Shown here in pieces: positions 48,473-59,069 of a stretch of DNA of 64,000 nucleotides (the stretch's first letter is position 1; each line of letters starts with the position of its first letter). Made by a program: the position numbers and the translations under genes. Under the pieces are notes generated by a model. The model did no database searches and was not told the DNA's origin. It was given only the letters and a program-made list of their open reading frames with translations. The stretch is from an uncultured Chloroflexia bacterium. Its GTDB lineage: Bacteria > Chloroflexota > Limnocylindria > Limnocylindrales > CSP1-4. The DNA lies in contig CAVXVP010000033.1 in NCBI GenBank assembly GCA_963765245.1, positions 21,104 to 85,103 of the forward strand, in the 5' to 3' direction.

Positions 48473-49895
48473 CTAGTAGGTGAAGCCGAACAGGCCGGGC
48501 GGAAGGTTGATGCCCATGACCTCGAACTTCTCGACGAACTTGGGCCGGATCCCGGTCGGCTTGAGCCGGCCCTGGATCTTGCCCTCGACCACGCCGGTCT
48601 GCTCGAAGACGAAGACGTCCTGCATGACGATGACGTCCCCCTCCATGCCCTGGACCTCGGTGATGTTGACGATCTTCCGCGTCCCGTCCTTGAGACGTGA
48701 CTGCTGGACGATGAGGTCGACCGCCGAGGCGACCTGCTCGCGGATGGCCCGCAGCGGCAGGTCGACGCCGGCCATGAGGACCATCGTCTCGAGTCGCGAC
48801 AGCATGTCGCGCGGGCTGTTGGCGTGGCCGGTGGACATCGAGCCGTCGTGGCCCGTGTTCATGGCCTGGAGCATGTCGAGCGCTTCGCCCGAACGGCACT
48901 CCCCGACGATGATCCGGTCGGGCCGCATGCGCAGGGCGTTGCGGACGAGCTCGCGGATCGGGATGGCGCCCTTGCCTTCGATGTTGGGCGGGCGCGACTC
49001 GAGGGTCACGACGTGCTCCTGGCGGAGCTGGAGCTCGGCCGCGTCCTCGATCGTCACGATCCGCTCGTCGTTCGGGATGAACGACGACAGGACGTTGAGG
49101 GTCGTGGTCTTGCCCGAGCCGGTGCCGCCGGAGACGAAGACGTTGAGGCGTGCTTCGACGCATGCCCGCAGGAAGTCGAACATGTCGGCCGTCGCGGTCC
49201 CGAACCGGATGAGGTCCTCGACAGTGAACGGCGAGGCCGAGAACTTCCGGATGGTGATGACCGGCCCCACCAATGAGAGCGGCGGGATGATTGCGTTGAC
49301 GCGGGAACCGTCGGTCAGGCGGGCGTCGACCATCGGCGACGACTCGTCGACGCGGCGACCGATCGGGGCGATGATCCGGTCGATGATGCGCATCACGTGG
49401 TCGTCGTTCTGGAAGACGACGTTGGTCAGCTCGAGCTTGCCGGATCGCTCGATGTAGACCTGGCGCGGGCCGTTGACCATGACTTCGGTGATCGACTCGT
49501 CACGCAGGAGTGGCTCGAGCGGCCCGAGGCCGATGATCTCGTCGGTGATCTGCTCGAGCATCCGGACGCGCTCGGCGCGGGTCAGGGCGAGGCCTTCCTC
49601 GTCGATGACCTTGCCGAAGATCTCCTCGATCTGGCGCCGGACCTCGACCTGGTTGGACAGGTCGAGCTTCGGATCCAGGTCCTGGATGACCCGGTTCTGG
49701 ATCCGGAACTTCACGTCCCGGAACGACTCGCGGACGGGCGCCTGGCTGGTCAGCCGGCCGGGCGTGGGCGCGCTCGGCGGCCCGCCCGCGGGTGCGGCTC
49801 GGCAGGTTGGACCCCGGTGCGCCCGGTGTGCCCGGTGCAACCGGTGCGCCAGAGGCTCCCGGTCGAGCGCTCTCGATCCGCTTCAGCAGAGACAT
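48473..49895 (-). CDS. cpaF: Tad pilus ATPase CpaF/TadA (frameshift near 49800)
   Basis: GLGPLEPLL, GGTGSGKTT, LRMRPDRIIVGE, MNTGHDGS. Confidence 0.96.
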
Positions 49896-49939
49896 CGCCT
49901 ATACCCCTTCTCGCCCCGAGGGGCCGACTGTGGACGCGT

Positions 49940-51199
49940 TCATCGCCATGCGAACAGCGATTTCTTCTGGGTCGATTTTCCGGCGTCGACGGTGTCGGGC
50001 TGAGCCTGACCACCGACCACTGACCGGGCCAAACGAAGGATGTCCTGGGAGACCTGCGCCTCCCGATTGGAAAGGAAGAAAGGTACTCCCCGATTGAGGG
50101 CGTACACAACGCTTCGACCGTCGCTGACGACGGTCTCGTCGACCTTTCGACCGATCGAGTGCTCGACGTCCGCGACGCGGATGCCGAGCGCCGAGTCGGC
50201 GCGGTTGAGGACAAGGCGGACCTTGCCCTTCTCATACCCGAGTTGTTCGGCGACCTCCAGGAAGAGGCGCATGTTCTTGATGCTCGTGATTTCGAGACTG
50301 AGCATCGTCAGGATCACATCGGCGGCGTCGAGGATGGCCAATGTCGTGTCGTTGAAGTACGAGGTGCAGTCGACGACCACGAGGTCGTGGTCGGCGCGCA
50401 GCCGTTCGAGGACCTTCTTGACGCCGCCCGCCGTGATCATCTCGGCCGTCTCGGGAGACGGAGGCGCGAGCAGGACCCGGATGCCGGCGGTGTGGTTGAT
50501 CAGGAAGGTGTCGATCGATTCGAGCTCACCCGCCTCGAGCTCGGGGATCAGGTCGGCGATCGACTTGCTCTTCGGGTTCAGGTTGAGCAGGACGCCGACA
50601 TCGCCGAACTGGAAGGAGCCGTCCATGATGACGACCTTCTTGCCGAGCTCGGTGGCGGCCGCGACGGCCAGGTTGACCGCGACGGTCGTCCGGCCCACCC
50701 CGCCCTTGGGGCTGAACACGGCGACGATCAAACCGGGCTCGCCCGGTTCGCCGGAGCGGGTGCCGTTCGTCGCGACGCCGGCCGTTGCCATGGTCGTGAC
50801 GGCGATGCGGCTCTGCTTGTCACGCTCGCGCGCGCTGACCTGACGGATCGAGGCGGTCAGCTCGTCGCTGCTGAACGGTTTGACCAGGAACTCGCGTGCG
50901 CCGGCAAGCATCGAGCGGCGGAGGTAGTCGGCCTCGCCCTGGACGGACATCATCACGACGGCGGCCCCGGGCACGATCGAGGCGAGCTGCTCGGTCGCGG
51001 CGATGCCGTCCATGTCGGGCATGTTGATGTCCATGAGGACCACGTCCGGGACCAGTCGAGCGGCCATCTCGAGGGCTTCGCGTCCGGACGCGGCGGCACC
51101 GACCACATCGATGTCGCTTTCGAAGCCCAGGAGCTTCGTCAGGTGATCGCGGGTCTCGGGGATGTCATCGACGACGAGGACGCGGATCTGGTCGGCCAT
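49940..51199 (-). CDS. cpaE: CpaE/TadZ: receiver domain plus MinD/ParA-like ATPase
   Basis: VLVVDD...LMDINMP receiver domain, FSPKGGVGRTT, LVLNR. Confidence 0.9.
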   Translation of the reverse strand: MADQIRVLVVDDIPETRDHLTKLLGFESDIDVVGAAASGREALEMAARLVPDVVLMDINMPDMDGIAATEQLASIVPGAAVVMMSVQGEADYLRRSMLAGAREFLVKPFSSDELTASIRQVSARERDKQSRIAVTTMATAGVATNGTRSGEPGEPGLIVAVFSPKGGVGRTTVAVNLAVAAATELGKKVVIMDGSFQFGDVGVLLNLNPKSKSIADLIPELEAGELESIDTFLINHTAGIRVLLAPPSPETAEMITAGGVKKVLERLRADHDLVVVDCTSYFNDTTLAILDAADVILTMLSLEITSIKNMRLFLEVAEQLGYEKGKVRLVLNRADSALGIRVADVEHSIGRKVDETVVSDGRSVVYALNRGVPFFLSNREAQVSQDILRLARSVVGGQAQPDTVDAGKSTQKKSLFAWR

Positions 51200-51300
51200 T
51201 TCGGTCTGCGTGGTTCCTTCTGTTCCCAAGCGTGGGATGTCGGGTCGGCGATCGAGGGGTTGTAGTGCCCGACCCCAAGGGGCCGGGCACGGTGCGAGTG

Positions 51301-52245
51301 CTAGTTGGTCGGGCGGATCGGCGTCGGGAGCCGGTTGTTCGGGAGGACCGGGCCTTCGATGACCGGCGGCAGGACGCCGTACTGGTCCAGCAGGATCTTG
51401 AGGGTCACACCCGTGGTCTCGGCGGAGGCCGGGGTCAGAGGCTGACCGGTGGCCGGGTCGATGAAGTCGTCAGGCGAGCGCAGGATCAGGGAGAGCGTCA
51501 GCAGGGGGTTGGCCTGCAGCTGTGCGTAGCGGATGACCTCGGCCTGCTGGGGATTGACCGAGAGGATCACGATCTCCTGCTGCTCGTTGAGGGTGGTGGT
51601 GCCGGGGGGAGGCGTGGGTGCGCCGGATGCCGCGGGAGCAGCCTCGGCCGGCGGAGCGACCGGCGGCAGAAGAGACCCGAGCACCTGCATGCCCTGGAGG
51701 AGGACCTTGGTGGTCGCGCCCTTCGGTCCAGGGGCAGTGATCGTCGCTTCGTCAGCGGTATCGACGCCCTTGATCGACAGGAACTGCTCCTCGGTCAGGC
51801 CGACGATCGCGTCCACGTAGTCCCCGGTCTTGATGACGGTGCCGACGCCGCTGATCTGGTCGACCCGGACAGCGATGGCTCGCTGGCCGACGGGAACCTG
51901 GACGTTGATGATGGTGCCGGTCTGCCCACCGTTCAGGGTCGTCGCGGTGATCTGGGCACCGGTGGCGACAGGCTGGCGTGCGATCTGCCCGATCACCTGC
52001 GACGGGTCGGTGAAGGCACCGGCGCTGATCGAGGTCAGCGGGAGGGTGATCGTCTTCACCTGCTCGGCCTTGATGCGCGTCGACAGCGGGATATCCGCCG
52101 CGGCAACGACGACCGGGCCATCGACGGGGGGCTTGTTCGTTGCGTTGTCCGTTGGCGGTGTGCGGACGAGCAACAGGATGCCCACGAAGGCTACGATCGC
52201 CAGGAAGACCCCGACGAGTAGGACGAGCCGATTAGAACGCTTCAA
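51301..52245 (-). CDS. cpaB: Flp pilus assembly protein CpaB/RcpC
   Basis: N-terminal TM, SAF-like VVVAAADIP, GQRAIAV, GDYVD, LSLILRS. Confidence 0.9.
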   Translation of the reverse strand: MKRSNRLVLLVGVFLAIVAFVGILLLVRTPPTDNATNKPPVDGPVVVAAADIPLSTRIKAEQVKTITLPLTSISAGAFTDPSQVIGQIARQPVATGAQITATTLNGGQTGTIINVQVPVGQRAIAVRVDQISGVGTVIKTGDYVDAIVGLTEEQFLSIKGVDTADEATITAPGPKGATTKVLLQGMQVLGSLLPPVAPPAEAAPAASGAPTPPPGTTTLNEQQEIVILSVNPQQAEVIRYAQLQANPLLTLSLILRSPDDFIDPATGQPLTPASAETTGVTLKILLDQYGVLPPVIEGPVLPNNRLPTPIRPTN

Positions 52246-52563: not shown

Positions 52564-52737
52564 CTAGACGGAACCGCCAACCGTGCTCAGGATCTTGCTG
52601 ACCTGGCCGCCCAGGAAGATGAGGGCGACGATCGCGACGATCGCGATGAGCGCCAGGATCAGGGCGTACTCCGCGAGTCCCTGGCCTTCGTCGTCGTTGC
52701 TGATGTGCGACTGGATAAGAGCGATGAGCTGATACAT
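52564..52737 (-). CDS. flp: Flp pilin 1
   Basis: MYQLIAL...EG|QGLAEYALILALIAIVAIVALIFLGGQV; AAGGAGG ribosome-binding site. Confidence 0.93.
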   Translation of the reverse strand: MYQLIALIQSHISNDDEGQGLAEYALILALIAIVAIVALIFLGGQVSKILSTVGGSV

Positions 52738-52920: not shown

Positions 52921-53095
52921 TTAGACCGACCCGCCGACCTCGCTCAGGATCGTGCTGACCTGGCTGCCCAGGAAGATGAGGGCGACGATGGCGACGATGG
53001 CGATGAGTGCGAGGATCAGGGCGTATTCCGCGAGGCCCTGGCCCTCCTCGTCGGTCGCTCATGTGAGACGTGACGAGGGCGATCAACTGGTTCAT
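52921..53095 (-). CDS. flp: Flp pilin 2 (one extra base near 53053)
   Basis: MNQLIALVTSHMSD / DEEGQGLAEYALILALIAIVAIVALIFLGSQVSTILSEVGGSV, stop TAA. Confidence 0.88.
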
Positions 53096-53193: not shown

Positions 53194-53376
53194 CTAGACC
53201 GAGCCGCCGACCGTGCTCAGGATCTTGCTGACCTGGCCGCCCAGGAAGATGAGGGCGACGATCGCGACGATCGCGATGAGCGCGAGGATCAGGGCGTACT
53301 CAGCGAGCCCCTGGCCTTCCTCGTCCCGATCAAGGGCGGCGAGGAACTTGAGATACATGTCCGTGATGACCGACAC
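53194..53376 (-). CDS. flp: Flp pilin 3
   Basis: GTG after AGGAGG; ...DEEGQGLAEYALIL...STVGGSV. Mature part is identical to pilin 1. Confidence 0.92.
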   Translation of the reverse strand: MSVITDMYLKFLAALDRDEEGQGLAEYALILALIAIVAIVALIFLGGQVSKILSTVGGSV

Positions 53377-53492
53377 TTCGTGCCTCCTGGATGAGTTCGA
53401 CCCCCAAACGAGGGCATGCGCAATATACGGAGACCGTGAGGGAAACACACTAGGATGATGGTACGGGGTGACGAGGCCGGACCACGGGCCGA

Positions 53493-53660
53493 TCAACCGC
53501 CCGTGGCCGCATCGATCGCGTTGCCGATGAGCCCGAGGATGTCGGCCAGCGTTCCCCCGAAGACCCCGAGGATGAGCGCTGTGAACGTGCTCGTCAGCGC
53601 CAGGATCAGCCCGTATTCGACGAGCCCTTGGGCGGCGCGGCGACGTCGGCCCCGAACCAT
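53493..53660 (-). CDS. Divergent Flp-like pilin 4 (55 aa, missing from the ORF track)
   Basis: Manual translation MVRGRRRRAAQGLVEYGLILALTSTFTALILGVFGGTLADILGLIGNAIDAATGG. The ATG abuts the kinase TAG. Confidence 0.8.
   Translation of the reverse strand: MVRGRRRRAAQGLVEYGLILALTSTFTALILGVFGGTLADILGLIGNAIDAATGG
53639..53659 (-). repeat. Right arm of the 21-bp inverted repeat, overlapping the pilin 4 start
   Basis: Minus strand TGGTTCGGGGCCGACGTCGCC. Confidence 0.7.
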
Positions 53661-54878
53661 CTACGCCTTGGACGCGACGACAGGGTCGGGTGGCATCTCC
53701 ACCACGATGCGTACTTCGTCGCCCTCGGGAGATAGCTCGGCGAGCATACCGAGGGTCGCGGCGCGACTCTGGATCTCGCGCCAGGTCGATGGTGGCAGGA
53801 CGACGATCGCCTCCCGCCTCGCGGCCTCGAGCGCATCGCGTGCATCGGCACGACGGTCGGCCATCATCGCCGCGAGGGCTGGCGGCAGGTCCTTGTCGGC
53901 GGCCTCATCGGGGGTCTGGTCAGGACGCACCTCGGCGCTCGCACGCGATGCGGAGACGCGCACATCGAGCACCTCCGACCAATCGAGCCGGACGGACACC
54001 CGGTCGGCACGAGCGCCGAGATAGGCCGCGGTCGCTTCATCGACCATGCGGAACATCCCACTCTCGAGGTCCATGTCCAGGCGCCGATCGGGGCCCAGGG
54101 AGTCGAAGTCGACCGGGACCCCGGCACGTCCGCCTCGCTCCCTGGCCGCCCGGCGGAGCGTTGGGACGAGCCCGAGGTCGTCGAGGACCATGGGGCGGAC
54201 GTCAAAGATGAACGACTTCGTCGCCTCGAGCGTCTGCTGGACCATGGCGACGAGCTGGCGCGCCTCGCCGCCGGCGCCCACCGGGTCGGTCGCCACCAGT
54301 CGCTCGACGATCTGTGCCTGCAGGATGATGTTGGTCAGGCTCTGAGCGGGTCCGTCGTGCATCGCCCTGGCGATCTCGCGCCGAAGGTCTTCCTGGGCTC
54401 CGAGGAGCAAACGCGAGACGGCCGGCGGTGCCCCGGTCGGGTCGGCGATGACCTTCGATCCGGCCTTGGCCGATCGCTGTGGCAACGGCACGTCGCCGAA
54501 CGCGGTCAGCGCCTCGAGGTACACCGCGAGCGTGTCTCGGTAGCGTGTGAGGGCGCGGCGCTTGCCCTCCAGTACGTCGACCTGCGATTCCATGAGGGCC
54601 GCCCTCTTCGTCAGCAGGACGAGCTGAGTGTTGAGGTCGGCAGCGACCGTGGGTTCCAGGGTGCTACCCGCAGACGCCGCGGCCGCCGTCGCGGTGCTGA
54701 GCTTCTCCACGGCGGCGACCCGTCGCGTCTCGTGCCGAGCGGCTTCCGTCCGGGCCTGCTCGACCAGCAGCTCCACCTCGCTCAGCTCGGACTCGAGCTG
54801 CGCCAACTCATCCGCCATCTTCCCGGAGAGCTCGGGCAGGCTGGCGGGCGGCGTCGGAGACGGGGCGACGTCGGTCAT
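53661..54878 (-). CDS. Soluble DegS-like histidine kinase homolog (HisKA_3) with a degenerate ATPase domain
   Basis: Coiled-coil N-terminus; AQEDLRREIARAMHDGPAQSLTN; DVRPMVLDDLGL. No N, G1 or G2 boxes. Confidence 0.82.
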   Translation of the reverse strand: MTDVAPSPTPPASLPELSGKMADELAQLESELSEVELLVEQARTEAARHETRRVAAVEKLSTATAAAASAGSTLEPTVAADLNTQLVLLTKRAALMESQVDVLEGKRRALTRYRDTLAVYLEALTAFGDVPLPQRSAKAGSKVIADPTGAPPAVSRLLLGAQEDLRREIARAMHDGPAQSLTNIILQAQIVERLVATDPVGAGGEARQLVAMVQQTLEATKSFIFDVRPMVLDDLGLVPTLRRAARERGGRAGVPVDFDSLGPDRRLDMDLESGMFRMVDEATAAYLGARADRVSVRLDWSEVLDVRVSASRASAEVRPDQTPDEAADKDLPPALAAMMADRRADARDALEAARREAIVVLPPSTWREIQSRAATLGMLAELSPEGDEVRIVVEMPPDPVVASKA

Positions 54879-54917: not shown

Positions 54918-55664
54918 TCAGTCTTCCGGCATCCGGATCCAGCCCTGGCGCATCGCATAGACGACGGCCTGGGTCCGGTCGTTGACGGACAGCTTGCGCA
55001 GGATGGAGCTCATGTGGTTCTTCACGGTCTGTTCACTGATGGACAACGCATAGGCGACCTGCTTGTTGGTCATTCCCTGCGCGATGTTGTCGAGGATCTC
55101 CACCTCGCGCGGTGACAGCGGCGCGAAGATCGGCGCGGCGTCCTGGCCGTAGACGGCCAGCTCGCGGAACTCCTTGAGGACGCGGGACGCGACGGCCGGC
55201 TTGGAGAAGACCTTGTCGTTGATGAGGTACTCGCCGGCGACGACGCGTCGGATGATCGTGACGAGGTCATCCGGGCCGACGTCCTTGAGGATGAAGGCGG
55301 CCGCGCCTGCCTTGATGGCGTCGAAGAGCGCGTCCTCGTCCTCGGTCTGGGCAAGGACGATGATCCCGGTCGAGGGCAGCTCGCGCTTGATGCGCTGCGT
55401 CGTCTCGATGCCGCCCGGAGAGGGCAGCGACAGGTCCATCAGGATGATGTCGGGCGACGTCTCGAGAGCGCGATCGATCGCGCCACGCGAATCCTCCGCC
55501 TCGGCGACGATCTCGAAGTCGGGCTCCCGGCCGAGGATGTTGGCGATCCCCATCCGAAAGAGGGCGTGATCATCGACCACGAGGATGCGCGTGACCTCGT
55601 CGAGCGCTCGGCGATCCGGACCGCCCCGGCGGCGATCGGGCCCGCTGTAATCCTGTGCAGTCAT
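54918..55664 (-). CDS. NarL/DegU-family response regulator (receiver plus LuxR HTH)
   Basis: VVDDH, LMDL, ILKD, LSPREVEIL...TVKNHMSSILRKL. Confidence 0.93.
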   Translation of the reverse strand: MTAQDYSGPDRRRGGPDRRALDEVTRILVVDDHALFRMGIANILGREPDFEIVAEAEDSRGAIDRALETSPDIILMDLSLPSPGGIETTQRIKRELPSTGIIVLAQTEDEDALFDAIKAGAAAFILKDVGPDDLVTIIRRVVAGEYLINDKVFSKPAVASRVLKEFRELAVYGQDAAPIFAPLSPREVEILDNIAQGMTNKQVAYALSISEQTVKNHMSSILRKLSVNDRTQAVVYAMRQGWIRMPED

Positions 55665-55823
55665 CTGCTCTCCTCTCCTCCCGCGGCCGGTTCCGTCGGG
55701 ATCGTCAGGCGGACGATAGTGCCGCCATCCGGCCGCGATCGTACGTCGAATCGTGCGCCGACCTGGCTCGGCTCGTTCGCGCATGAGCCGGAGTCCGAAG
55801 TTGCACCGTCCTCGGGCCGCCAC
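55661..55823 (-). pseudogene. Orphan histidine kinase ATPase C-terminal fragment
   Basis: VAARGRCNFGLRLMRERAE / QVGARFDVRSRPDGGTIVRLTIP...; its stop overlaps the regulator ATG. Confidence 0.65.
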
Positions 55824-55848
55824 GGTCCGGATTGAGTATAGGCGTCGG

Positions 55849-57483
55849 TCACGGACAGACGACCTCGAATGCGCTGACGTCAGCAAGCGGATCGTTCGTG
55901 CCGGCCTCCCCGGTCCATGGACCGAGCGGGATCGGTCGGAAGCAATCGGCCTGCGGGGCGCCCGCTTCAAGGTCCGCCGGCCAGTGCTTGTCTCGCGGCT
56001 GGATCAGGATCAGGTAGCGGGTCCCATCGAAGGACCGGGCCAGGTCAAGGACGTCAGCCGGTGGTTCGTTCGGGAGGGCCAGGGTCGGGATCCGCTGTGT
56101 CTCGGCAAGCCAGATCGGGAAATCGGTGATCACCGGACCCGCGCTGGCATCGAGCGGATGACCGGCGGCCGCCATGCGGACCGCCAGCTCATTGAAGACA
56201 CGTGCAGTCCCGGCCGAGTCCGCGGCGAACGACGATAGGAGGACGACCGAGAAGATCGTCGACCCGAAGATGCCGAGCGTCGGACCAAGCCACGCCACGG
56301 GATTCGTCCACGACCGCCGCCGCCCGACCCAGGCGATCAGGGTATCCAGCGCGAAGAGGCCGCTGATGACCAACAGGACATGGACAGGCCCGGCTCCGTG
56401 CAGGAATGTGCCCCATTGGGTCGCGGCCGGGAAGACAAGGCTCGTGAACAGGAACGTGACAGCGCTGATGAGGAGGAGCGGACGCAGGGCGAGCGAGCGC
56501 AGCACCCACGGCAGACCGACGATGCCGACCAGCGACATCGGCAGGCCAAGAAAAACCAGGACGTTGAGCAGGTTGTGCGTGAGCCCGACCCAGCGGAGCT
56601 CCAGGAGCGCTGTCGGTCCGATCGCGAGGTAACGGGCGAGCGTCGGCCGATCGTGCCACGCGAAGATGTCCAAGCCCGATATGTATAAGGCGTTCGTCGC
56701 GGCGCCCCCCGGTAGTGGGGTTCCGAGCACGGTCAGATTCCGGTAGGCCCACGGGGCGAAGACGAGCAGGGCAACGACCGCGACGACGCCGATCAGGCGC
56801 AGCCGCACCGCCCGTGGCGCGATCGTGGCGAACCACGCGATCCCCGCCCAGATGACTGCCAGCCAGGCAGTCTCGTTGCGGGTCAACGCGCCGAGACCGA
56901 ACAGGACGCCGAGCCCGATCAGCCGTGGGTCGGTGAGACGGCCACCGCGGGGATCGCGGGCGATCCGGGTCATGAGCAGGCACGCACTCAGGACGATGAC
57001 CGTGAACGGCATCGTGGTGTCCGGGAGTGCCGAGTTGAGCAGAAGCGGCAGGTAGACCGCGGTCGTGAGCCCGACGCCGATCGCGACGGTCCGGGCCCGG
57101 CCCGTCGGCAGGCCACGTTCGGCCGTGATGTCCCACGCGAGCACCCATGCCAGGACCGGCACCAGGGCCCCTACCAGCACGGACGAGACTTGTGCGGCTT
57201 GGAACGTGGTGCCGAGGAACGCCATCGGGATCGCCGCCAGGAAGGTCGGCAGGGGCAGCCAGACCTCGAACGCCGGATGCGGGATCACGAGGTCAGGCGT
57301 CGCGAAAGTCCACAGCGCGTCCGTCACCAGCCCGCGACCTTCGACGAGGTTGCGCGCGACACCGACGTAGTACGCCGTGTCCTCGGGCTTCGGGAAGACG
57401 ATGACCGAGGCGACGACGATGCGCGTCACCAGCGCCACGACGAACAGTCCGAGGGCGGTCAGGATCGCCTCGCGCCTGGTCAT
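55849..57483 (-). CDS. GT-C (family 39/83-like) membrane glycosyltransferase
   Basis: PEDTAYYVGVARNL, WLPLP, ALTRNE, PWAYRN and many TM helices. Confidence 0.75.
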   Translation of the reverse strand: MTRREAILTALGLFVVALVTRIVVASVIVFPKPEDTAYYVGVARNLVEGRGLVTDALWTFATPDLVIPHPAFEVWLPLPTFLAAIPMAFLGTTFQAAQVSSVLVGALVPVLAWVLAWDITAERGLPTGRARTVAIGVGLTTAVYLPLLLNSALPDTTMPFTVIVLSACLLMTRIARDPRGGRLTDPRLIGLGVLFGLGALTRNETAWLAVIWAGIAWFATIAPRAVRLRLIGVVAVVALLVFAPWAYRNLTVLGTPLPGGAATNALYISGLDIFAWHDRPTLARYLAIGPTALLELRWVGLTHNLLNVLVFLGLPMSLVGIVGLPWVLRSLALRPLLLISAVTFLFTSLVFPAATQWGTFLHGAGPVHVLLVISGLFALDTLIAWVGRRRSWTNPVAWLGPTLGIFGSTIFSVVLLSSFAADSAGTARVFNELAVRMAAAGHPLDASAGPVITDFPIWLAETQRIPTLALPNEPPADVLDLARSFDGTRYLILIQPRDKHWPADLEAGAPQADCFRPIPLGPWTGEAGTNDPLADVSAFEVVCP

Positions 57484-59069
57484 GAGCCGAGCTCCAGCGG
57501 GTAGACCATCAGCCCGGCGATCCCGGTGCTCAGCGGCGGCCCGACCCATGACGGCCGGTTCCCGGCGAGGATCGGCGCAGCGGCCGGCACCGACTCCTTG
57601 GCATCCAGGACGAGCCACGCGATCCCGTATGCGCGCGCGACCTCTTCGATCGTGTCGATCGGGTCGTTGACGAGGACGACCCCACCGTGGTTCGTCCAGT
57701 ACTTCGTTGAGGAGGCGTCGATCGACATGACGCGGGACGCGGCGTCGGCGCCGGCCTGGGTCAGCGTCGTCGCCACCGCCAGCTCGCGCTGGCGACGATC
57801 CTCCCAGACGCCGTGGACCACGACTGACCCCGCGACGGCGCACACGACCGCGAACGCGAGGACGGCGCCGGTGAAGATCCGGCTTGCCCTCGCGGCGTCC
57901 CACGAGGATCGCCGCCTGGCGACCCATTGGACCGCGACGTCGATGCCCTCAAGGGCCAGGATGTAGCTGAACGGTGCAAGCGCGATCGCAGAATGGATGA
58001 AGGTCCCACCCGGCACGTGGACCGCCGACACGATCGCCGAGAACGCGAACAGCAGACCGGCGTAGATGAAGAACGGACCGAAGTCGCGCGACCTGCGCCG
58101 CGCCCAGCCGCCGATGAGCATGAACGGGGCGAGGACAACGCCGGCGACGAGCGTGATGTAGATCATCACTGCGGCGACGAACCCATCGATCCGCGTCTGG
58201 AGCAGCGGCCCGATCCCCATGTCGAGCAGCCGTCCGAGCGTGGCCGGGGTCGTGATGCTGTTCCACTCCTCGATCGAACGGATGAAGAGGACCTTGCCCG
58301 ACGCGGTCGATGGCGAGAGCGACCCAAAGACGGCCAACTGCCGCGCCCACCACGGGGCCATGACGAGTGCGAACGCCGCGACGCAGCCAGCGGCCGAGGC
58401 ATACGAGATCGCAGGTGGCCTGGTGCCGGCCGAGCGCCAGGACCGCCATCGATCCCAGGCGAAGGCCAGACCGAGCGCCGCGAGGACCAGCAGGCCGTCA
58501 TTCCGCGACAGCGTCGCGAGGCCGGCCAACAGTCCGGCGCCAACGAACGCCCACGGAGACGAGCCGCGCAGTGCCCGGGCGCCGAGCCACAGCGAGCCGA
58601 TGACCAGCGGCTGGAAGAGCGAGAAGTTGTCGGGCTGGACCAGGTAGACGGCCGACAGCAGCGGGACCGCCGTCAGGATCCCGGCCCCCACCGCGACACG
58701 ACGGACCGCCCCGAAGTCGCGCGCGATCGCCCAGGTGAGGGGCGCCGCGATCGCGCCGATCAGCGCGAAGGGGAGTGCCTCCGCCCAGGCGACGTCGCCG
58801 AAGACGGCCATGAAGGGGACCTGCACGATCGAGGCCAGGGGCATCCAGTGGGCGTTCGATGGGATCGGGAGCATCGGGTCGGCCGGGATCTTGGCTCCGA
58901 CCTCGGCGAAGATCCAGACGAAGTCGATGTTGAAGCCGGCGCCGGCGTGGAGGCTCCTGGCGACATCGACGTAGTACGCGGAATCCGGGTAACCGGGATA
59001 GGGAAACTGCGCGATCAGGACCAAACGGACGGCAAGGGCAAGCCCGTATAGGAGGAGGGGGATACGCAC
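57480..59069 (-). CDS. GT-C membrane glycosyltransferase, paralog of the adjacent gene
   Basis: PDSAYYVDVARSL, WMPL, LSRNDG, PWWARQ, GTFIHS. Confidence 0.75.
   Translation of the reverse strand: MRIPLLLYGLALAVRLVLIAQFPYPGYPDSAYYVDVARSLHAGAGFNIDFVWIFAEVGAKIPADPMLPIPSNAHWMPLASIVQVPFMAVFGDVAWAEALPFALIGAIAAPLTWAIARDFGAVRRVAVGAGILTAVPLLSAVYLVQPDNFSLFQPLVIGSLWLGARALRGSSPWAFVGAGLLAGLATLSRNDGLLVLAALGLAFAWDRWRSWRSAGTRPPAISYASAAGCVAAFALVMAPWWARQLAVFGSLSPSTASGKVLFIRSIEEWNSITTPATLGRLLDMGIGPLLQTRIDGFVAAVMIYITLVAGVVLAPFMLIGGWARRRSRDFGPFFIYAGLLFAFSAIVSAVHVPGGTFIHSAIALAPFSYILALEGIDVAVQWVARRRSSWDAARASRIFTGAVLAFAVVCAVAGSVVVHGVWEDRRQRELAVATTLTQAGADAASRVMSIDASSTKYWTNHGGVVLVNDPIDTIEEVARAYGIAWLVLDAKESVPAAAPILAGNRPSWVGPPLSTGIAGLMVYPLELGS

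Follow-up and report, generated by a model that had tools for sequence, protein, structure and literature searches.

What might an arginine-rich peptide do at the very beginning of a response regulator that stands ahead of a set of pilus genes? The question is raised by a locus within a window of 64,000 nucleotides, the whole stretch of DNA analysed here, from an uncultured bacterium of the class Limnocylindria (phylum Chloroflexota), in which an atypical NarL/LuxR-type response regulator heads a flp-tad gene cluster (Table 1). A preliminary description of this DNA had proposed that the regulator takes c-di-GMP as an input and controls the adjacent Tad pilus genes.

Table 1. Features of the regulator locus and the neighbouring pilus genes, in window coordinates.
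Feature	Coordinates	Strand	Basis and remarks
Remnant of the canonical upstream histidine kinase gene (final ~60 codons, with one frameshift)	55661..55852	(-)	tblastn
NarL/LuxR-type response regulator, 248 aa	54918..55664	(-)	translation, Pfam
Arginine-rich tail core, Y6 to R19 (YSGPDRRRGGPDRR)	55608..55649	(-)	translation, orthologue alignment
Receiver domain, residues 27-139	55248..55586	(-)	Pfam, alignment, AlphaFold2 strands
GerE/LuxR helix-turn-helix, residues 182-237	54954..55121	(-)	Pfam; class-wide nearly invariant
Downstream DegS-like pseudokinase	53661..54878	(-)	HisKA_3 H-box intact, ATP-binding domain degenerate
flp pilin gene 1	53493..53660	(-)	follows the pseudokinase stop directly; Flp_Fap E 0.0047 (Pfam), below cut-off
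Conserved element GTACCATCATCCTAGT, 106 nt upstream of flp gene 2	53449..53464	(-)	locus comparison
flp pilin gene 2	53194..53358	(-)	Flp_Fap E 1e-4, below cut-off
flp pilin gene 3	core 52921..53058, with 5' end to 53095	(-)	5' end MNQLIALVTSHMSD... out of frame with the pilin core
flp pilin gene 4	52564..52737	(-)	Flp_Fap E 6e-4, below cut-off
cpaB-cpaE-cpaF block	48473..52245	(-)
cpaB	51301-52245	(-)	Pfam RcpC/SAF
cpaE (CpaE/TadZ-type ATPase), N-terminal receiver	49940-51229	(-)	Response_reg (1.1e-27) + AAA_31/ParA
cpaF ATPase	48473-49840	(-)	Pfam T2SSE 2.8e-65

The regulator begins MTAQDYSGPDRRRGGPDRRALDEV (its opening is also given as MTAQDYSGPDRRRGGPDRR), and positions 55610-55664 of the reverse strand correspond to codons M1 to R18 and the first base of R19. 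Pfam assigns a Response_reg domain (5e-25) and a GerE/LuxR helix-turn-helix (1.3e-22) to the protein; beyond these two, the scan of the regulator returned sub-threshold matches to Sigma-70 region 4 only, and no PilZ domain. Translation and domain assignment together bear out the two tandem GPDRR copies that had been described ahead of the receiver. By its receiver and its GerE domain, the protein belongs to the NarL/FixJ (LuxR-type) regulators, and the helix-turn-helix and the linker before it are nearly identical class-wide in the alignment. For its close homologues (at least 88% identity), the sources are given as Chloroflexota and Candidatus Limnocylindrales. Among solved structures, VraR, NarL and DevR come closest (E 2.4e-37 to 4.5e-32); they have the two-domain fold and the family in common with the regulator, but residues 1-22 are left uncovered in every alignment. 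Since the structure alignments to these proteins all start at residue 23-26, the tail lies outside every known model. With 157.8 bits, the protein stays below the cut-off of the NCBIfam NarL model (250) and is thus not an equivalog of any named regulator.

The ATG at position 55664 is preceded by GGAGGAGAGGAGAG, a Shine-Dalgarno sequence is present, and the start overlaps the stop of the upstream kinase remnant (ATGA). The next in-frame start codon is a GTG at V29, within strand beta-1. Because no start lies between the ATG and this strand, a true start downstream of the motif, which the preliminary description had named as a possible objection to its own proposal, is refuted, and the N-terminal tail must be translated.

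For the conservation of the tail, the best match per genome was taken from 30 species-level genomes of the regulator's own family (L001-L030), from 20 loci of the sister family (L031-L050; 73-78% identity to the regulator) and, at 55-62% identity, from 20 loci of two further families, the third and the fifth (L051-L070). The tail core reads Y-x-G-P-[DE]-R-R-R-G-G-P-D-R-R and is embedded in a disordered N-terminal tail of about 20 residues. Within the own family, Y6, G8, R11, R12, R13 and R19 are each found in 30/30 genomes, as is [DE]10, followed by G15 (29/30) and P9 (26/30), and the flanking positions 2-5, 7 and 20-25 vary among homologues. All codons for arginine and glycine are in use at the invariant tail positions, and synonymous changes are saturated among the 30 own-family genomes. 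As the residues are fixed while their codons vary freely, selection acts on the protein, and the tail core is under strong protein-level selection.

The first copy, YSGPDRR in this genome, fits [Y/F]xGP[D/E][R/K]R in 26 of the 30 own-family genomes, and the conservation of YxGPDRR on which the earlier proposal had been made to depend is accordingly strong. A second copy of the form GPxRR accompanies a consensus first copy in 16 of these genomes; among the 120 closest database homologues, 114 carry the first copy and 103 carry both. A reduced core, [DE]RR..G..[DE]R[RK], is present in 23/30 own-family and 20/20 sister-family genomes. One own-family genus has lost the second copy (7/30 loci) and carries strings such as PGPGGR instead, and three further own-family loci have Q or NS instead of P. 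The aspartate after the second RR (RxxD), D22 here, is occupied by D in 7, E in 10, G in 9, S in 3 and A in 1 of the 30 own-family genomes. In the sister family, the tail is compressed to [DE]RRxGxDRR in all 20 loci, where it follows a variable acidic N-terminus and lacks both the Y and the GP, the first-copy consensus being found in 0/20. The regulator orthologues of the third and fifth families bear no arginine motif (0/20). More distant representatives, below about 55% identity, begin straight at the receiver, and a few representatives at 57-76% identity bear degenerate arginine tails.

A database search with residues 1-40 gave 298 matches, all of which fall into the regulator's own protein family, and six-frame scans of the 3.88-Mb genome revealed no second coding-looking open reading frame with the tandem motif. 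In an AlphaFold2 model (96-sequence alignment, mean pLDDT 82.8), residues 1-18 are predicted to be disordered (pLDDT <50), which fits a peptide that folds upon ligand binding and equally fits any disordered arm. One 755-bp contig encodes a stand-alone CheY-like protein of 143 amino acids (P0185), the first 32 residues of which match the regulator family including the tail before the sequence diverges fully. This contig is probably a chimeric metagenome assembly; if the protein is real, it would represent a Cle-like single-domain form. Two other sources of such strings were considered. A Tat signal can be discarded, as the RR is not followed by a hydrophobic stretch and the regulator is cytoplasmic and binds DNA. 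The GPDRR of the downstream pseudokinase (FDSLGPDRRLD) was likewise set aside as carrying no meaning, since it falls on the usual G-x-D-x-R-L framework site of HisKA_3 kinases, at which canonical kinases have GIDARL.

The receiver is atypical. It keeps the acidic pair D31/D32, the phospho-accepting D77, the aromatic switch residue F124 and K127, as judged from the alignment and the AlphaFold2 strands, but the position of the Thr/Ser switch at the end of strand beta-4 is taken by Ala105. The phospho-Asp, the lysine and the alanine had been read correctly in the preliminary description, and the phosphorylation set that is canonical for NarL/FixJ regulators is incomplete. In a representative alignment holding 13 of the 70 sequences, the switch position is Ala in the rows of the own and the sister family, save for one own-family Ser, and Thr in the rows of the third family. 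In the sister family, the acidic pair has become D[GT] and the second acidic residue is gone. The tail-less orthologues of the third and fifth families have likewise lost the second acidic residue and carry Glu at the phospho-Asp site in 19 of 20 cases, which suggests a phosphorylation-independent form.

Further changes concern the kinases. The conserved gene order places a canonical DegS-like HisKA_3 kinase directly upstream of the regulator, and such a kinase is found at this place in all three families. Of the 30 own-family loci, 28 have it, three of them with a gene that runs past the end of the fetched locus; besides the present genome, one other locus of the 30 lacks it. Here, tblastn with the intact orthologue from own-family locus L002 matches only residues 320-347 and 349-380 of this query, in two frames, and no orthologue of the canonical kinase was found elsewhere in the assembly, which is 76% complete. 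The remnant abuts the end of an open reading frame for a 692-aa membrane protein (55849-57927). Downstream of the regulator follows the pseudokinase, in which Pfam recognizes HisKA_3 only, with no HATPase_c match even at E<=10. Compared with the canonical upstream kinases, it has neither the N-box Asn nor the G1 and G2 motifs (DxGxG, GxG). It follows the regulator in the own and the third family and is absent from the sister family. Since the switch Thr is Ala, the canonical kinase is a remnant and the downstream kinase lacks ATP-binding motifs, the phosphorylation input of the regulator looks weakened.

The regulator and the pseudokinase are followed by four flp genes and then by cpaB, cpaE and cpaF, which identifies a flp-tad (type IVc pilus) cluster. 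The adjacency to Tad pilus genes that had been pointed out before is therefore real, and the linkage holds in two families. In at least 33 own-family genomes (counted by hand), a single contig carries the regulator and cpaF at a distance of 5-6.5 kb, and 18/20 sister-family loci have cpaF downstream of the regulator at no more than 8 kb, the remaining two being short contigs. None of the 20 loci of the third and fifth families has cpaF within 8 kb of the regulator; the gene is present in 49/49 genomes of the third family, but elsewhere, for instance 459 kb away in one genome (G016). The presence of the tail and the linkage to the pilus cluster thus coincide at the level of families and may go back to a single evolutionary event. 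Own-family loci carry two to seven flp genes in tandem, those of the sister and third families one. The break of frame in the third flp gene reflects a frameshift or else an error of sequencing.

Upstream of an flp start, loci of all three families (L071-L110 and L032-L050) share an element of the pattern G[TG]AC[CG]N6[CT][TC]A[GT]T, located mostly 78-106 nt and in a few cases 14-36 nt before the start codon (overall range 14-106 nt). The element may be an flp promoter or operator. A sigma-54 promoter was rejected, because the spacing from GG to GC is 4 nt too long. No riboswitch or other known RNA was detected upstream of flp with Rfam, either at the gathering thresholds or at E<=1, and no palindromic operator of the NarL type could be defined in the flp-upstream regions compared.

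The closest precedent for the tail is provided by the Cle proteins of Caulobacter (CleA-E) and by the c-di-GMP-sequestering peptide derived from CleD. According to two reports (eLife 2017, PNAS 2020), the Cle proteins bind an intercalated c-di-GMP dimer via a peptide of 28-36 residues that follows a CheY-like receiver; binding occurs with a stoichiometry of 2:1 and nanomolar affinity, and the peptide is unfolded without its ligand. The consensus given there is a tandem of [Y/F]XGPX[R/K]R or [Y/F]XGP[D/E][R/K]R, and the motif was cited in agreement with it in the preliminary description. The binding functions of CleD are assigned to a DRR and an [R/K]RxxD, 11 residues apart, and to a stacking tyrosine (PNAS 2020): D154-R155-R156 reads a guanine, with the Asp on its Watson-Crick edge and the Arg on its Hoogsteen edge, and a Y163A exchange weakens the Kd 25-fold. 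The first Y-x-G-P is dispensable, as CSP4, a 19-mer starting at DRRR, binds with a Kd of 177 nM vs 154 nM, and single-residue deletions in the spacer raise the Kd 2- to 7-fold. The list from a published search for Cle peptides, as far as its accessible part goes, comprises 302 proteins, of which 294 are alphaproteobacterial; the regulator's type is not among them.

In both systems, an arginine-rich peptide adjoins a receiver that no longer relies on the phosphorylation switch, and the disorder predicted for the tail has its counterpart in the disorder of the Cle peptide without ligand. The first copy, YSGPDRRR, equals the YVGPDRRR of CleD at seven of eight residues, and the second, GGPDRRALD, keeps the GP-x-R-R-x-x-D of YKGPRKRKAD; even the ERRRGGDRR of the sister family keeps the type of residue that carries binding in CleD. 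However, the differences are considerable. The Cle peptide is C-terminal to a stand-alone CheY-like receiver and the target is the flagellar motor, whereas the tail stands on the N-terminal side of the receiver in a REC-GerE protein that binds DNA. The Cle copies are 13 residues apart, but those of the tail only 7, with five residues between R12 and R18. The second tyrosine (Y163 in CleD) has no counterpart in RGGPDRR, where Arg takes the place of Tyr or Phe, and the conserved Arg of helix alpha-4 is missing from residues 110-119 (EDALFDAIKA). Finally, the regulator belongs to the Chloroflexota, in contrast to the 294 of 302 published members. The likeness to the Cle site that had been claimed thus stands for the first copy and fails for the 13-residue spacing, the second aromatic residue and the C-terminal position. 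Because of the spacing, the missing second Tyr, the Asp of RxxD that varies among orthologues, the missing alpha-4 Arg and the side of the receiver, we do not file the regulator as a member of the Cle family; by analogy, the tail may nevertheless work like a Cle peptide.

We tentatively propose that the tail is a compact arginine-rich peptide of the Cle type that binds c-di-GMP, a reading that we consider quite possible, if still short of probable. Each [DE]RR unit would read one guanine, as D154-R155-R156 does in CleD. In the (beta-alpha)5 fold of receivers, strand beta-1 begins at the pole at which helix alpha-5 ends, so that a tail at the N-terminus comes out at the exit point of the C-terminal Cle peptide; here, it would adjoin the linker that leads to the DNA-binding domain. 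The tail would become ordered on binding c-di-GMP, perhaps as an intercalated dimer that might be shared by the two tails of a regulator dimer, and the ordered tail would favour the dimeric, DNA-binding form. In this way, c-di-GMP would add to or replace the phosphorylation input and turn on the neighbouring flp and tad genes.

The cellular background is compatible with such a role. In Caulobacter, Tad pili are a known output of c-di-GMP, according to the accessible literature. The present genome has 16 GGDEF matches and no Pfam match to PilZ, and in the class 145/151 sampled genomes have GGDEF, at 4-22 matches per genome, and 7/61 have PilZ. Since GGDEF is common and PilZ is rare, few of the c-di-GMP receptors of the class are known. 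In the small-genome family f2, GGDEF, cpaF and the regulator are all absent (0/6 each). The tallies by class and family take in seven genomes flagged as unpublished. Co-occurrence with GGDEF was discarded as a discriminator, because the tail-less third family has GGDEF genes too, in 49/49 genomes. As this family combines GGDEF and cpaF but lacks the tail, the co-occurrence of c-di-GMP and Tad pili does not always require the tail.

Other regulators resemble parts of the arrangement. In VpsT, FleQ, BldD, BrlR, MrkH, Clp and LtmA, c-di-GMP acts directly on a transcription factor, and VpsT is also of the LuxR/receiver type. VpsT binds c-di-GMP via a W[F/L/M][T/S]R motif at the receiver dimer interface, and the c-di-GMP motif of BldD is RXD-X8-RXXD. 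The VpsT-type motif is absent from the regulator, the sole Trp of which lies in QGWIRM. In the accessible part of a 2025 review of these seven c-di-GMP-responsive transcription factors, none is described with a Cle-type peptide. Our literature searches returned no report of such a peptide on a NarL-type regulator, and a search combining Limnocylindria, Tad pili and c-di-GMP found no mention of Limnocylindria. At the family level, the regulator is also similar to PprA-PprB of Pseudomonas aeruginosa, which the available sources describe as a two-component regulator tied to type IVb/Flp (Tad) pilus genes. With such PprB-like regulators of pilus clusters it shares the adjacency to flp and tad. For PprB, we know of neither an arginine-rich tail nor a c-di-GMP input.

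It is also conceivable that the tail binds no nucleotide and is a charged, disordered arm that contacts DNA or RNA by the operator, the kinase or the pseudokinase, RNA polymerase, or the receiver or helix-turn-helix of the regulator itself, the latter as an autoinhibitory element or a dimerisation aid. We regard this as rather unlikely, yet several observations are in its favour: the AlphaFold2 model leaves the tail disordered, the tail is basic overall, the fold topology would place it beside the pole of the receiver from which the linker runs to the DNA-binding domain, and it is confined to one orthologue group, as a family-specific protein contact would be. The spacing of the copies, unlike that of Cle, and the compressed form of the sister family, which lacks the Cle-defining Y and GP, point in the same direction. 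A kinase contact, however, does not agree with the distribution of the genes, since the tail-less family has the pseudokinase, the tailed sister family lacks it and the canonical kinase is found in all three families, so that neither tracks with the tail. Moreover, a conserved acidic residue before each RR would be unusual in a nucleic-acid-binding arm and would suit the reading of guanine better than contact with the DNA backbone, and the match at seven of eight residues to a ligand-binding peptide would have to be a coincidence.

If the tail does bind a small molecule, this could in principle be another guanine-containing or anionic one, such as (p)ppGpp, GTP, cGAMP or polyphosphate. The [DE]RR units might read any guanine base, and the shorter spacing may suit a ligand smaller than an intercalated dimer of c-di-GMP; however, c-di-GMP is the only ligand documented for peptides of the YxGP[DE]RR type in the accessible literature, and the genome is rich in GGDEF proteins, which makes a different ligand improbable. 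An origin of the motif by chance, as a low-complexity stretch of a GC-rich genome or as an untranslated sequence, is refuted. Indeed, the genome has 69.6% G+C and arginine-rich strings are plentiful in its non-coding frames, but six tail positions stay the same in 30/30 species while synonymous changes occur freely, the gene has a Shine-Dalgarno sequence, an ATGA overlap and no alternative start ahead of strand beta-1, and no other coding-looking open reading frame of the genome bears the tandem motif. As a proposal, the interpretation put forward in the preliminary description is the best available one. Should c-di-GMP not be bound, a strongly selected, unexplained tail on an atypical regulator remains.

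If the tail binds c-di-GMP as proposed, it would be the first peptide of the Cle type beyond the CheY-like motor regulators and also the first carried by a transcription factor, and a short linear motif would be seen to work on either side of a receiver. The homologues would then form a natural structure-activity series, from the full tandem via the loss of one copy and the compressed 9-mer to the tail-less form with a Glu phospho-site. More far-reaching, and in our opinion doubtful as a whole, is the idea that the Cle-type peptide is a portable minimal sensor that also functions ahead of a receiver, that the regulator is the main link from c-di-GMP to transcription for the Tad pili of the class, that the nine residues [DE]RRxGxDRR of the sister family might be the smallest natural c-di-GMP-binding element, acting via the two tails of a dimer, and that the phosphorylation input is decaying, from the change of Thr to Ala and the loss of the kinase to an Asp-to-Glu change after loss of the tail. 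Judging by the source names of close homologues, the class is widespread in freshwater and soil and is uncultured; binding of c-di-GMP by the tail would name an effector for a class that makes c-di-GMP and yet is mostly without PilZ.
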